DNA of 10,863 nt from Alphaproteobacteria bacterium (lineage in GTDB: Bacteria; Myxococcota_A; UBA796; SXON01), in NCBI GenBank assembly GCA_040376255.1, contig JBEIQZ010000161.1:1-10863 (forward strand), in the 5' to 3' direction. Both the position numbers and the translations under genes were made by a program. Below, piece by piece: positions 5,672 to 10,289 of this stretch. Numbering within the stretch: the stretch's first letter is position 1; the number at the start of each line of letters is the position of its first letter. The notes under the pieces are model-generated. The model saw only the letters and a list, made by a program, of their open reading frames with translations. It was not told where the DNA came from and made no database searches.

Positions 5672-6844
5672 CTAATCCGCCAGGATCTCGCGCAGCGCCC
5701 CCGCAAGCTCGTCCAGCACTGAGAGCGGCGTCACCAGCGGCGGCATCAGCCGCATGACCTGGGGATCGTCGCTGCCCCCGGTGATGAAGCCGCGATCCCG
5801 GAGCGCCGCGACCACCGGCTTCGTCGGGCGGCCGAGGCACAGCCCGAGCAGCGCGCCCTCCCCGCGCACCGGCACCGGCAGCACCGCCCGCGCATGGGCG
5901 CCGAACGCCGCCGCCTTCGCCACCAGCCCCTCGGACTGGATGACATGGTGGGTGGCGAGGATCGCCGCGCAGGCCATCGGCCCGGCGCCGAAGGTCGATC
6001 CCTGATCGCCGGGTTTTGCCTTTGCGGCGATGGCGTCGTCGACGAGCGTGACGCCGACCGGGAAGCCGCCCGCCGCGCCCTTGGCGGAGGTGATGAGGTC
6101 GACGCGGACGCCGTAGAGGTCGGCGGCGAAGTTGGCGCCCGTCCGGCCCCAGGCGGTCTGCACCTCGTCGAAGATGAGCAGCGCGCCGACCCGGTCGCAC
6201 TCGGCCCGGAGCGCGGCGAACCACGCCCGATCTGCGGTGGTGACCCCGGCGAGCGACTGGATCGGCTCCAGGATCACCGCCGCCACGTCGTCCGCCAGCG
6301 CAGGGATCTCCTGTCCGAACGGCATGAAGCGCGTGTTGCCGTACTCAGGCAGCGCGTAGCGCCGGTACTTCTCTGAGGCGGTCACCGCGAGCGCCCCGAG
6401 CGTGCGCCCGTGGAAGCCGCCTGCCATCGCCACGACGACGGGCCGCCCGGTGTGGTGCCGCGCCAGCTTCAGCGCCGCCTCGTTGGCCTCCGCGCCGGAG
6501 TTCGACAGAAACACTCTTGTTAAGTTCTCCGGGGCGAACCGCACGACCGCCTCGCAGGCCGCCGCCCGGAGCGGGCTGTAGACCACGTTCGAGTAGAACC
6601 CCAGCCGCCGCGCCTGCGCCCCGATCAGCGCCGCCCAGGCCGGGTGCGAGTGGCCGAGCAGCGCGACGCAGTGGCCGCCGTACAGATCCCACCAGCGCCG
6701 CCCCGAGGCGTCCCACACCTCCGCCCCGCTGCCGCCCGTCAGGTGGAGCGGGAGCTTGTCGTAGGTGGCGAGCTGCCACGCCCCCTCCTCACCCGCGCCC
6801 GCCTCCCACGCCTCCAGCATCGCCGTCGCCGCCGTCCGATCCAT
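5672..6844 (-). CDS. Class-III PLP-dependent aminotransferase (acetylornithine/ornithine/GABA aminotransferase family, ArgD-like)
   Basis: DEVQTAWGRTG matches the family motif DEVQTGFGRTG. ITSAKGAAGGFP matches the Lys-containing T[ST]xK..GGG.P motif. The N-terminal LGHSHPAWAAL matches LGHxHP. The start ATG at 6844 is preceded by CTGGAGCG. It lies 23 nt after the stop of the upstream acyltransferase gene. Confidence 0.85.
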   Translation of the reverse strand: MDRTAATAMLEAWEAGAGEEGAWQLATYDKLPLHLTGGSGAEVWDASGRRWWDLYGGHCVALLGHSHPAWAALIGAQARRLGFYSNVVYSPLRAAACEAVVRFAPENLTRVFLSNSGAEANEAALKLARHHTGRPVVVAMAGGFHGRTLGALAVTASEKYRRYALPEYGNTRFMPFGQEIPALADDVAAVILEPIQSLAGVTTADRAWFAALRAECDRVGALLIFDEVQTAWGRTGANFAADLYGVRVDLITSAKGAAGGFPVGVTLVDDAIAAKAKPGDQGSTFGAGPMACAAILATHHVIQSEGLVAKAAAFGAHARAVLPVPVRGEGALLGLCLGRPTKPVVAALRDRGFITGGSDDPQVMRLMPPLVTPLSVLDELAGALREILAD

Positions 6845-6867
6845 CGCCGCTCCAGAAGGGCGCCGCC

Positions 6868-7947: not shown

Positions 7948-10289
7948 GTCCCCTCCCCTGCGCCCTGATCGGCCAGCAGCGTGAGCGCCGCCGCCCGGAT
8001 GTCCTCCTCCTGCACCAGCACCAGGTTCGCCGCCGCGCCGAGCGGGATGTAGACGTCCGCCCCCGCCACCCGCGCCATGCTTCCTGCGTACCTGCCGTCC
8101 ACCAGCGCCGCGAAGATCGCCTCCGCCATGCCCCCGGTGCGCCTGCACTCGTCCACCACCAGCACCCGCGCCGCCCCCCGCGCCGCCGCCAGCAGATCCT
8201 CCACCGGCAGCGGGTTGAGCCAGCGCAGATCCATCACCCGGCACCGGACGCCCTTCTCGCGCAATTCCGCCGCCACCCGGAGGCTCATCCACAGGCCGTT
8301 GGCCCAGCTCACGATCAGCAGATCGGCTGCTCCGGCCTCCGCCCCTTCCGCGTCGTAGATCCGCGCCCGCCCGACCGGGATGTGTTCTTCAGGTGCCGGG
8401 TAGGTCGCGGCCCACTTCTCGTCTCCGGGCGCGTACAGATCGCGCGTCATGTACAGCGCGATGGGCTCGACGATCATGCACACCGCCCCGTCCACCTTCG
8501 CCGCCGCCACGCAGGTCCGCAGCATCTTCACCGCGTCGTCGGGGCGCGCGGGCGCGGCGAGGATCAGGCCGGGGATGTCGCGCAGCGCGGCGACGGAGTT
8601 GTCGTTGTGAAAGTGGCCGCCAAAACCCTTCTGGTAGGCGAAGCCCTGGACCCGCACCACCATCGGGTTCCTGAACTGCCCCTGTGAGAAGTACTGGAGC
8701 GAGCAGGCCTCGCCCCGGATCTGGTCGCAGGCGTTATGAAAATAGGCGAGGTACTGGATCTCCGGCACCGGCAATTGCCCCGCCGCCGCCGCCCCGAGGC
8801 CGAGGCCGAGGATCGTCTGCTCGTCCAGCAGCGTGTCGAACACGCGATCCTTGCCGATCTTCTTCTGGAGGCCGTTGGTGACGTTGTAGACGCCGCCCTT
8901 CTTCCCGGTGTCCTCGCCGAACAGGATCATCTCCGGGTACTTGATCAGCAGATCCAGCAGCGCGCGGTTGATCTGCACCGCGAGGTGCCGGGGGCCATCG
9001 CGCTCGGGCAGGTTGCCGTGGAGCGCGGCCCGCGCAGCCGGATCGGCGGGCCGGGCGACCTCGGCGGCGACGCGGTCGGGGTGGAGCGGGGCGAGCGGGG
9101 CGATGACCGTGGCGGCGTCGGTGAGGCGGGGGCGCCGGATGGCCTCCTCCCCGGCGGCGGTGATCCGGGCGCGGATCTCCTCATAGAGCGACAGCACCTC
9201 CTCCGGAGACATCCAGCCCCCCGACACGAGCAGCTGCGCCGTCTGGATCAGCGGGTCGCGCGCCTCGGTGGCGGCGATGTCCTCCGGGCTCCGATAGGTC
9301 GACTCCACGTCCGATCCCGCGTGCCCGAGCAGCCGCACTGTCCGCACATGCAGCAGGCAGGGCCGCCGGTACTGGCGCACCCAGCGCGCCGCCGCCTCCG
9401 CCGCGTCCGCCACGTCGGGCAGGTACAGCCCGTCGCCCGCCACATAGGCCAGCCCCGGCGCCTCCTGCCAGGTCGCCGCCACCCAGCCATCCGGCGTCGG
9501 CACCGAGATCCCGATCCCGTTGTCCTCGCACACAAACAGCAGCGGGCAGTCGATCCCCTGGTGGGCATGCCAGCGCGCCGCGTTGATCGCCCCCTGCGCG
9601 GTCGAGTGGTTCAGCGAGGCGTCCCCGAAGGTGCAGACCACGATCCGGTCGTCCGACTCAGGGAGCAGCCCCAGCCGCTTCCCCCGCTCGATGGCCAGCG
9701 CCATCCCGAGCGCCTTGGGGAGGTGCGAGGCGATAGTAGAGGTCTGCGGCGGGATGTTCAGCGCCAGGCTCCCGAACACCTTGTGCCGCCCGCCCGCTAT
9801 CGGCTCATCCGCCGACGCCGCCAACCCCAGCAGCACGTCGAAGCTGCCCGTCATCCCTGGCACCTGCTTCGCGCGCTGCTGGAAGAAGGCGCCGCTGCGG
9901 TAGTGCAGGAAGGCCGGATCATCGGGGCGCAGCGCAGCCGCCACCGCCGCGTTGCCCTCATGCCCGGAGCTGCCGATGGTATAAAAACATTGATCCCGCG
10001 CCTTCAGCGCCCGCGCCGTCAGATCGAGGTGGCGGCTCTCGATCTGGCTCTCGAACAGCTCCATCGCCGCTCGCGCCGTCAGCGCCCACCCCTCGCGCAC
10101 CGGATTTGCCCACCAGTCGCTGTCATCCCCCCGACCGCCATCGCCCTGGCCATCGCCCTTATTGTTCTGGACGACTGCCCAGCCCTCGCGTATCAGGCTG
10201 TCGACGTCAGCGCGCCGCTCCGCCCGCTCCATGCCCTGCACCGCACGGATGAAATTCTGATCGACAACTCCGGCCCGGTTGACCGCCAT
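7944..10289 (-). CDS. Fused alpha/beta E1 component of a TPP-dependent 2-oxo-acid dehydrogenase (branched-chain/pyruvate/acetoin E1 family), 781 aa
   Basis: The N-terminal half carries the E1-alpha TPP motif: FGDASLNHSTAQGAINAARW...LLFVCEDNGIGIS aligns with GDGATSEGDFHEALNFAAVW...VIFVCENNQYAIS. The C-terminal half is transketolase-like E1-beta: ILFGEDTGKKGGVYNVTNGLQKKIGKDRVFDTLLDEQTILGLGLGAAAAG aligns with MGEDVG.GGVFRCTEGL..KYG..RVFDTPISEAGIVGTAVGMA. An N-terminal Gly/Asp-rich insert (NKGDGQGDGGRGDDSD) is present. The start ATG at 10289 is preceded by AGGGGA. Confidence 0.85.
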   Translation of the reverse strand: MAVNRAGVVDQNFIRAVQGMERAERRADVDSLIREGWAVVQNNKGDGQGDGGRGDDSDWWANPVREGWALTARAAMELFESQIESRHLDLTARALKARDQCFYTIGSSGHEGNAAVAAALRPDDPAFLHYRSGAFFQQRAKQVPGMTGSFDVLLGLAASADEPIAGGRHKVFGSLALNIPPQTSTIASHLPKALGMALAIERGKRLGLLPESDDRIVVCTFGDASLNHSTAQGAINAARWHAHQGIDCPLLFVCEDNGIGISVPTPDGWVAATWQEAPGLAYVAGDGLYLPDVADAAEAAARWVRQYRRPCLLHVRTVRLLGHAGSDVESTYRSPEDIAATEARDPLIQTAQLLVSGGWMSPEEVLSLYEEIRARITAAGEEAIRRPRLTDAATVIAPLAPLHPDRVAAEVARPADPAARAALHGNLPERDGPRHLAVQINRALLDLLIKYPEMILFGEDTGKKGGVYNVTNGLQKKIGKDRVFDTLLDEQTILGLGLGAAAAGQLPVPEIQYLAYFHNACDQIRGEACSLQYFSQGQFRNPMVVRVQGFAYQKGFGGHFHNDNSVAALRDIPGLILAAPARPDDAVKMLRTCVAAAKVDGAVCMIVEPIALYMTRDLYAPGDEKWAATYPAPEEHIPVGRARIYDAEGAEAGAADLLIVSWANGLWMSLRVAAELREKGVRCRVMDLRWLNPLPVEDLLAAARGAARVLVVDECRRTGGMAEAIFAALVDGRYAGSMARVAGADVYIPLGAAANLVLVQEEDIRAAALTLLADQGAGEGT

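Follow-up and report, generated by a model that had tools for sequence, protein, structure and literature searches.

A fused alpha-beta E1 and a FabD-fold acyltransferase as a candidate 2-oxoadipate dehydrogenase module

In mammals, 2-oxoadipate is converted to glutaryl-coenzyme A (glutaryl-CoA) by DHTKD1 (E1a) acting together with DLST (E2o) and DLD (E3) (PMC9367764). In Pseudomonas putida and in plants, the Fe(II) oxygenase HglS (DUF1338) converts 2-oxoadipate to D-2-hydroxyglutarate (PMC7286885). In actinobacteria, OdhA joins an E1 with its own succinyltransferase, and its lipoyl groups are provided in trans by E2p (PMC10415282). Here we examine a pair of minus-strand genes on contig JBEIQZ010000161.1, a metagenome-derived contig of 10,863 bp and 71% GC that we analyzed over its whole length and that we call the window. 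The pair encodes a fused E1(alpha-beta) enzyme dependent on thiamine diphosphate (ThDP) and an acyltransferase (AT) with the FabD fold and a Ser-His active site. On balance, we lean toward reading these two proteins as a 2-oxoacid dehydrogenase module that converts 2-oxoadipate to glutaryl-CoA and has no E2 gene of its own. The role that we ascribe to the window's copy would follow from homology and gene context.

Like OdhA/Kgd, the pair couples an E1 to its own acyl-CoA-forming transferase without a lipoyl domain or an E2 core, and the two parts are fused in a eukaryotic homologue. OdhA differs, however, in combining a homodimeric E1 of the SucA type with a canonical CAT-like E2 domain as transferase, whereas the pair consists of a fused alpha-beta E1 and a FabD-type Ser-His transferase that are separate, coupled proteins in bacteria and that would, by analogy, receive lipoyl groups in trans. 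With the DHTKD1 complex the pair would share both the proposed reaction and a place upstream of glutaryl-CoA dehydrogenase (GCDH) in lysine catabolism, although that complex relies on a SucA-like E1 and on the lipoyl-E2o of the 2-oxoglutarate dehydrogenase complex, while the pair has a dedicated FabD-like transferase and no E2 nearby. HglS also removes 2-oxoadipate in lysine catabolism, but without forming a CoA ester and without GCDH. Finally, the E1 of the window resembles the E1s of branched-chain 2-oxoacid dehydrogenase (BCKDH) and pyruvate dehydrogenase (PDH) (alpha2beta2, or fused in the form labelled 'bkdA' by JGI) in its domain order, ThDP motif, catalytic Glu and His and alpha-beta fusion. 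It is unlike them in lying on a deep branch, in having no adjoining E2 or E3 gene and in having relatives with lysine-pathway rather than branched-chain partners.

A conserved, translationally coupled E1 and acyltransferase

Three minus-strand open reading frames (ORFs) fill positions 5672-10289 of the window. The E1 fusion (7944..10289, 781 aa), which we propose acts as a 2-oxoadipate decarboxylase and reductive acylase, is followed by AT (6868..7947, 359 aa), a member of a distinct subfamily that would transfer glutaryl to CoA, and then by a class-III aminotransferase (5672..6844, 390 aa) that is most likely ArgD. Read directly from the minus strand, the junction of the first two genes is GGAGGggacATGA, where the AT start codon (ATG, 7947-7945) and the E1 stop codon (TGA, 7946-7944) overlap by 4 nt in an ATGA at 7944..7947; a GGAGG at 7952-7956 lies 4 nt before the AT ATG. 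We set this AT start by the starts of its homologues, the mechanical ORF running upstream to a GTG at 8292. Between the AT stop codon (TAA, 6870-6868) and the aminotransferase start codon (ATG, 6844-6842) lies a spacer of 23 nt (6845..6867), likewise read directly from the sequence, with a GGAG at 6850-6853, 5 nt ahead of the aminotransferase ATG. A sequence scan found no promoter-like or terminator-like sites between the three genes, and searches of the 10.9-kb contig with Pfam and NCBIfam found no gene for an E2, an E3, an acyl carrier protein (ACP) or a ketosynthase. An earlier note on this DNA had described three packed minus-strand genes with an ATGA overlap, a 23-nt gap and no E2 or E3, all of which is borne out by the sequence and the domain searches.

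Using AT as the most diagnostic query and scanning one genome per species, we found AT relatives in 297 species of the genome collection. The family is also present in more than 579 metagenome stretches, and a profile search of 1.8 billion representative proteins returned 169 family representatives at E <= 1e-30. Carriers among the listed loci are mostly Myxococcota metagenome-assembled genomes (MAGs), together with Bdellovibrionota, Holophagae and one Planctomycetota genome; the cultured Holophagae carriers are Sulfidibacter corallicola and Acanthopleuribacter pedis. We examined the neighbourhoods of 79 genome loci and 79 metagenome loci, and searched the flanks of about 175 loci for partner genes. 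Greedy ORF clustering proved noisy at high GC because of shadow ORFs, and it was replaced by tblastn panels and by clustering at GC <=0.58. The tblastn panel placed E1 directly upstream of AT in 74 of the 79 genome loci and 63 of the 79 metagenome loci, the remainder being mostly truncated contigs, and across several phyla the two genes adjoin in about 145 loci. At 61 of 83 junctions the E1 stop codon overlaps the AT start codon (ATGA or GTGA), and nearly all the others are no more than 12 nt apart. This coupling is far above chance, and E1 and AT form a conserved, translationally coupled unit that is sometimes fused.

Gene annotation of the flanks of the approximately 175 loci revealed no recurrent E2 or E3 gene, so that the missing lipoyl-E2 and E3 remarked on in the earlier note holds well beyond the window. 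Our search with lipoyl and ACP probes was a weak one and gave one marginal lipoyl match (L175). No gene for an ACP, a ketosynthase, a polyketide synthase (PKS), a nonribosomal peptide synthetase (NRPS) or lipid synthesis stands beside the pair in the window or at any related locus.

The fused form of the pair probably comes from a eukaryote. Family member P0462 carries the E1 beta C-terminal domain and AT in one uninterrupted ORF of 595 aa, which aligns to residues 543-767 of the window E1 (E = 7e-9) and to AT (35% identity, E = 8e-35). It occurs on three contigs (L094, L095 and L096; 64% GC, one of them TARA-labelled) with septin and metacaspase genes, and its host is probably a marine eukaryote, a Micromonas-like alga. 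In L094 (6121-10153, plus strand), the gene continues on both sides of this ORF, with an upstream exon for the rest of E1 and a downstream exon for the end of AT, and therefore encodes an E1 alpha-E1 beta-AT fusion. Near-identical sequence after both apparent exon ends suggests repeated introns, and the N-terminal extension of the fusion protein may be a targeting peptide. The divergent neighbour of the fusion gene encodes an acyl-CoA dehydrogenase that is a putative GCDH, judged by its motifs and by 38-50% identity to the GCDH of a Bdellovibrionia MAG (L067). The fusion is strong independent evidence that E1 and AT work together. The coupling and shared function that had been suggested for the E1 and the FabD-like transferase thus find support in conservation across phyla and in a eukaryotic fusion. 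We left out a further apparent chimera of E1 beta and AT (P0439), which has the look of a deletion or of faulty assembly.

The E1 fusion exceeds the gathering scores of three Pfam models (E1_dh, 97.9 bits; Transket_pyr, 67.3 bits; Transketolase_C, 62.8 bits). It falls below every NCBIfam cutoff for PDH and BCKDH E1s, which span 321-454, reaching at most 128 bits (best beta 127.6 versus 321, best alpha 87.8 versus 411). Given that its scores are far under every curated PDH or BCKDH model, we place it on a separate deep branch, apart from these curated E1s. Its matches in the PDB and NCBIfam are exclusively alpha-beta-type E1s, transketolase or DXS, with no homology to the DHTKD1/SucA type. We aligned the alpha part with human BCKD E1 alpha, and the beta part with the E1 beta of G. 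stearothermophilus and T. thermophilus. The protein has the ThDP motif GDA...EDNG and retains the residues aligned to human BCKD alpha Arg287, His291, Asp295, Tyr300 and Arg301 as well as the Glu (in DTPLAE) and His (in ELHSD) aligned to G. stearothermophilus E1 beta; at the position of the BCKD alpha phosphorylation site, Ser292, it has Ala. The ThDP-motif and catalytic residues are invariant across the family. Neither E1 nor AT contains a lipoyl domain, as judged by Pfam and the structure model. NCBI records P0175, P0176, P0192, P0200 and P0219 label the E1 fusion 'MFS transporter', an evident annotation error that is propagating.

The AlphaFold model of AT (pLDDT 94) finds FabD/MCAT enzymes as its top PDB structural matches (probability 1.0, TM 0.7-0.8, about 20% identity). 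In sequence searches, its Pfam match to Acyl_transf_1 is weak (17.6 bits versus a cutoff of 32.7), and it lies far under the cutoffs for fabD (TIGR00128; 32.2 versus 260.9) and mdcH (49.7 versus 297.9). AT is like FabD and MdcH in its fold, at that TM range, and in having a GxSxG serine nucleophile, a catalytic His and an (H)AFH-like motif; its Ser108 in GNSMG and His220 in HSAFHTP align to the active-site Ser (in GHSLG) and His of FabD. It is unlike them in its low identity of about 20% and in two substrate-site residues. The Arg117 with which FabD holds the malonyl carboxylate gives way to Met133, a position at which all 77 relatives have Met or Leu, and Arg16, an Arg that is invariant in the family, stands in place of Gln11. 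In addition, the FabD TQP loop is replaced by GE(N/H)AS. The full set of residues invariant in the 77 AT sequences is Arg16, Tyr19, Arg45, His67, Glu71, Asn107, Ser108, Gln145, Trp155, His216, Phe219 and His220. We rejected the possibility that AT is the cell's true FabD or MdcH, since Arg117 and Gln11 are lost and the scores are sub-threshold. Unlike those enzymes, AT invariably comes with a coupled E1 and nowhere occurs among fab or mdc genes, and no ACP or ketosynthase gene adjoins any family member examined, nor is there any other fab or PKS context. As read from the alignment, the change of Arg117 to a hydrophobic residue together with the newly invariant Arg16 and Arg45 is in keeping with a dicarboxylic acyl group that exceeds malonyl by two carbons.

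Loss of Arg117 would also suit an acyl group that has no carboxylate. It is conceivable, then, although we consider it improbable, that the E1 belongs to an ordinary BCKDH or PDH whose E2 and E3 are encoded elsewhere, and that AT moves a short acyl group from CoA to ACP and so primes iso-fatty acids. In keeping with this, JGI labels the protein '2-oxoisovalerate dehydrogenase E1 component', and human BCKD E1 alpha is its best PDB match for the alpha part. Iso-C15:0 is abundant in Sulfidibacter and Acanthopleuribacter, two carriers that have been cultured (PMC8841776). However, the E1 scores far below the BCKDH and PDH cutoffs, no fab, ACP or ketosynthase gene occurs near the approximately 175 loci, and the two new invariant arginines of AT are compatible with an acyl group that is carboxylated. 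The partner genes of the family, described next, bear on this alternative as well.

Lysine-catabolic neighbours and a proposed reaction

A distant family member (P0384, at L097) lies in a gcdH-E1-AT operon whose dehydrogenase matches the Burkholderia GCDH 3GNC at 1e-182. In the Bdellovibrionia MAG locus L067, the acyl-CoA dehydrogenase matches human GCDH at 8e-135, and the arrangement is that seen beside the algal fusion. A metagenome scan seeded with the P0384 branch gave 80 more loci. We called a gene GCDH-like if it had at least 50% identity to the verified GCDHs of L097 and L067 and lay within 3 kb of the pair. By this measure, 29 of the 54 informative metagenome loci have a GCDH-like gene near the pair, as do 27 of the 35 loci with GC <=0.58; the gene is usually 45-260 nt upstream of the pair and on the same strand. 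In 16 loci gcdH is preceded by a LysR regulator gene, in most cases on the opposite strand.

Further enzymes of the same pathway accompany the pair in smaller numbers of loci. L-piperidine-6-carboxylate (P6C) dehydrogenase is encoded in four loci, with scores of 805 and 802 bits in L119 and L150 against an NCBIfam equivalog cutoff of 730. Its gene starts 34 nt past AT in L150 and, as a 63% identical homologue, 11 nt past AT in L166. A class-I aminotransferase gene lies directly upstream in L131, L150 and L121, the last of these being an aminotransferase-gcdH-E1-AT operon, and L151, L119 and L144 each have a saccharopine-dehydrogenase-like gene. The pair is therefore part of lysine and 2-aminoadipate catabolic clusters in many lineages. 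Its partner enzymes cover the conversion of lysine to 2-oxoadipate by way of 2-aminoadipate semialdehyde and 2-aminoadipate, as well as the route from glutaryl-CoA onward. Since the partners cover all the other steps, the conversion of 2-oxoadipate to glutaryl-CoA is the step left for E1 and AT. These findings also argue against an ordinary BCKDH, given that the recurrent partner is the dehydrogenase of glutaryl-CoA and not of isovaleryl-CoA, and that the other partners are those of the lysine pathway.

Two loci have unusual surroundings. In L150, a class-III aminotransferase gene (8502-9656, minus strand) lies beside the AT and P6C dehydrogenase genes and has its best match in PRK06148 (632 bits). 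We take PRK06148 to comprise fusions of a kinase with an aminotransferase that are relatives of phosphohydroxylysine phospho-lyase, and the match would then hint at a branch through which hydroxylysine enters the same pathway. In L098 (3174-11026), from a marine MAG, the pair ends an operon with genes for an IclR regulator, an FrsA-like hydrolase, a luciferase-like monooxygenase and an FAA-family hydrolase, without gcdH; judging from this locus, the module may serve other pathways that produce 2-oxo-dicarboxylates too.

For the favored function, we propose the following course of events. E1 would bind ThDP, decarboxylate 2-oxoadipate and reductively pass the glutaryl group to a lipoyl group, since all of its catalytic residues are kept, including the two histidines of lipoyl acylation. 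The pair comes without an E2 gene, and its lipoyl domain is therefore probably borrowed. By analogy with OdhA/Kgd, it would be lent in trans by the E2 of another complex or by a similar carrier, and it would be re-oxidised by the cell's E3. AT would then take the glutaryl group onto Ser108 with the assistance of His220, while Arg16 and/or Arg45 would hold the distal carboxylate, and would pass it to CoA. The resulting glutaryl-CoA would go to GCDH.

It is also possible to draw up a scheme that does without lipoate, in which AT takes the acyl group straight from acyl-ThDP, or acylates the product of a non-oxidative E1. The lack of any lipoyl-domain, E2 or E3 gene beside the approximately 175 loci would agree with such a scheme, and the eukaryotic fusion would allow the channelling it calls for. 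Nevertheless, we find it distinctly unlikely, as E1 keeps both histidines used for lipoamide acylation and has no redox cofactor domain with which to oxidise the enamine, and borrowed lipoyl groups like those of OdhA suffice to explain the missing E2. We are a little more open to, but still regard as rather unlikely, the broadest version of our proposal, namely, an unrecognised class of 2-oxoacid dehydrogenase in which a FabD-fold AT has replaced the CAT-like E2 core, at its strongest without a lipoyl arm and with the acyl group going straight from E1 to AT, and which fills the 2-oxoadipate step of bacteria and algae.

Several points weigh against assigning 2-oxoadipate dehydrogenase activity to the pair. 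Known E1s for 2-oxoadipate and 2-oxoglutarate are homodimeric proteins of the SucA/DHTKD1 type and not of the alpha-beta type. The lipoyl carrier required for both the borrowed-lipoyl step and the AT step is hypothetical, being posited by analogy, and we know of no precedent for a FabD-fold enzyme that uses an acyl-dihydrolipoyl donor. The proposed function rests on gene context, and literature searches on the pair, on the GNSMG motif and on a bacterial 2-oxoadipate dehydrogenase returned nothing relevant. In particular, the literature searched, which left many subscription journals out of reach, held no description of an alpha-beta E1 paired with a FabD-fold transferase, and we found no curated family for either E1 or AT; a paper on ornithine lipids with a similar list of taxa was unrelated. 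As for the window's own copy, no lysine-catabolic gene adjoins the pair there or in its Myxococcota/Holophagae clade, a GCDH gene was present in only 1 of 76 loci (L067, Bdellovibrionia), and the window AT is only 42-46% identical to the ATs found in a lysine context.

The window's clade and its aminotransferase

The window AT falls in the Myxococcota/Holophagae block of the AT tree, which is one contiguous block in the neighbour-joining (NJ) ordering. The context expected of a 2-oxoadipate dehydrogenase, that is, GCDH and 2-aminoadipate-forming genes, was found for relatives of the pair but not for this clade. Its neighbours are of another kind. In 55 of the 79 genome-scan loci, in the Myxococcota clade, AT is followed by a gene for an HDDC2/YfbR-like HD phosphohydrolase (for example, L002 11041-11514), the start of which overlaps the AT stop by 4 nt in L002, L004 and L089. 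A HIT (HinT-like) gene often lies just past the HD gene on the opposite strand, and in the window argD holds the position of the HD gene. Upstream of E1 and divergent from it, the window encodes a SixA-like histidine phosphatase (10396..10854, plus strand; TIGR00249, 52 bits versus a cutoff of 74.5). A SixA-like gene is immediately upstream of E1 in many Myxococcota loci (L002, L009, L010 and others), usually on the same strand, and none was found beside the pair in other phyla. A regulatory link between SixA and E1 is not obvious, with Ala at the BCKD Ser292 site in E1. We set aside the conserved Myxococcota neighbours (adenosylhomocysteinase-like, a 219-aa protein, SixA-like, HD and HIT) as clues to function, their annotation being non-mechanistic and the genes being absent in other phyla. 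Several Myxococcota loci also encode an acyl-CoA dehydrogenase some 7 kb downstream; it is of a generic kind, with about 30% identity to GCDH, and was not used either.

One could argue from this that the E1 and AT of the window's clade have diverged, and now act on another 2-oxo acid or in another process, possibly with the HD, SixA-like and HIT neighbours. The contiguous NJ block and the frequent HD gene after AT would fit such a divergence, as would the fact that GCDH, P6C dehydrogenase and saccharopine dehydrogenase genes never neighbour the pair in the clade. We nonetheless think it unlikely. The window E1 is about 50-56% identical to lysine-context E1s, and at all 226 E1 positions that are at least 90% conserved the residue is the same in lysine-context and other E1s, the number of conserved-but-different positions being zero. 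In AT, 66 conserved positions are common to both groups and one differs. Thus, no E1 position and a single AT position set the clade apart, all family-specific active-site residues are held in common, and large genomes often lose the synteny of partner genes without a change of function. Given this homology and the near absence of clade-specific change at conserved positions, we consider it most likely, with moderate confidence, that the window's copy would have the function of its lysine-context relatives.

The aminotransferase has a different history. Its class follows from an Aminotran_3 match of 272 bits in Pfam, from NCBIfam and from the context of its orthologues, and it contains TSAKGAAGG, the Lys of which we take to be the Schiff-base residue. 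Its best family models are those of acetylornithine transaminase, ArgD and LysJ, the top NCBIfam scores, for acetylornithine transaminase (NF002874, 316.4 versus 457) and argD (TIGR00707, 302.1 versus 410), both being sub-cutoff. We also considered L-lysine 6-aminotransferase and rejected it, as the ArgD/LysJ models score highest and that enzyme is outside the top 25 families. Orthologues P0266 (70%) and P0274 (66%) are flanked by Semialdhyde_dh (argC) and OTCace (argF) genes, with argG, argB and argH nearby, in the order argG-x-argC-(orthologue)-argF...argB...argH. One of these arginine clusters is in MAG GCA_040384145.1, whose E1-AT-HD genes sit on another contig, and no E1 is found near a 78% orthologue, which adjoins genes for MgtE and an FG-GAP protein. 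Because the orthologues occupy arginine clusters and the best models are of the ArgD type, we conclude that the third gene is most likely ArgD and outside the conserved module, its place downstream of AT being due to a lineage-specific rearrangement. In two Myxococcota arginine clusters, a conserved gene of about 350 aa with no Pfam or NCBIfam match lies between argG and argC (L092 5994-7058, L093 5997-7046).

The earlier note had gone further and read all three genes as a short pathway, in which the aminotransferase makes a 2-oxo acid, the orphan E1 decarboxylates it and the transferase hands the product to a carrier, as a starter unit or a precursor of a specialised metabolite. Tight packing favors this reading, and the aminotransferase gene is probably co-transcribed with the pair in this contig. 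Homologues of AT (P0002, 80%) and of the aminotransferase (P0242, 89%) also each list a longest contig of 2681 bp, and a close relative may thus keep these two genes side by side. On the other hand, an aminotransferase gene of this kind is beside the pair in the window contig only and is absent from the 79 genome and 79 metagenome loci. Its orthologues lie in arginine clusters, and omega-transaminases of the ArgD/LysJ type make no 2-oxo acids from alpha-amino acids. Moreover, no neighbourhood of the pair in any lineage holds an ACP, ketosynthase, PKS or NRPS gene, or one for lipid synthesis, the recurrent partners belong to lysine degradation, and the pair is spread over some 297 species, as a module of primary metabolism would be. 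We therefore rejected the starter-unit route, and the three-gene pathway as a whole seems to us very improbable. What endures of the shared function is the part that concerns E1 and AT; the aminotransferase, which is not co-conserved with them, falls away, by the very test of co-conservation that the note had set for the trio.

Remaining contig genes and meaning of the pair

In addition to the SixA-like phosphatase, the contig encodes a major vault protein homologue, a double cNMP-binding protein and a TrmB-like methyltransferase. The vault homologue (61-2532, minus strand, 823 aa; MVP_shoulder 105 bits, Vault_3 33 bits) aligns over residues 455-805 with solved structures of MVP (about 5e-20), and is a bacterial vault relative in a Myxococcota-like MAG. 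In its neighbour (2557-3909, minus strand), the two cNMP-binding domains are accompanied by a long, acidic tail at the C-terminus, which ends in (S-A-D-S-G)n, encoded by a 15-nt tandem repeat (2579-2664, 5.7 copies, 91% matches). Neither Rfam nor tRNA searches yielded a match anywhere in the window, the gap of about 1 kb between TrmB and argD included. The likeliest ORF in this gap (5148-5504, plus strand, 118 aa, with repeats at 5418-5499) encodes a single hydrophobic helix and, after it, a tail rich in His, Gly and Asp (HHGGHHGHHGHH...GGGDGGGG), and has no Pfam match; it may have arisen by chance, or it may encode a small membrane protein that binds metal.

We conclude that the E1-AT pair is probably an unrecognised and widespread enzyme system of lysine catabolism. 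To our knowledge, no dedicated enzyme for the conversion of 2-oxoadipate to glutaryl-CoA has been described in most other bacteria. If our proposal is true, the pair fills that gap, standing beside gcdH in many lineages and beside genes for an amaB-like P6C dehydrogenase and a class-I aminotransferase in a few. The pair would also be, as far as we know, the first 2-oxoacid dehydrogenase system in which acyl transfer of the FabD type takes the place of an E2 core, and it would widen the exception to the textbook E1-E2-E3 architecture that OdhA represents. These results matter for annotation, too. The labels '2-oxoisovalerate dehydrogenase E1', 'ACP S-malonyltransferase' and 'MFS transporter' spread wrong predictions of fatty-acid and branched-chain pathways, and the aminotransferase of the window should not be counted as a member of a biosynthetic trio.

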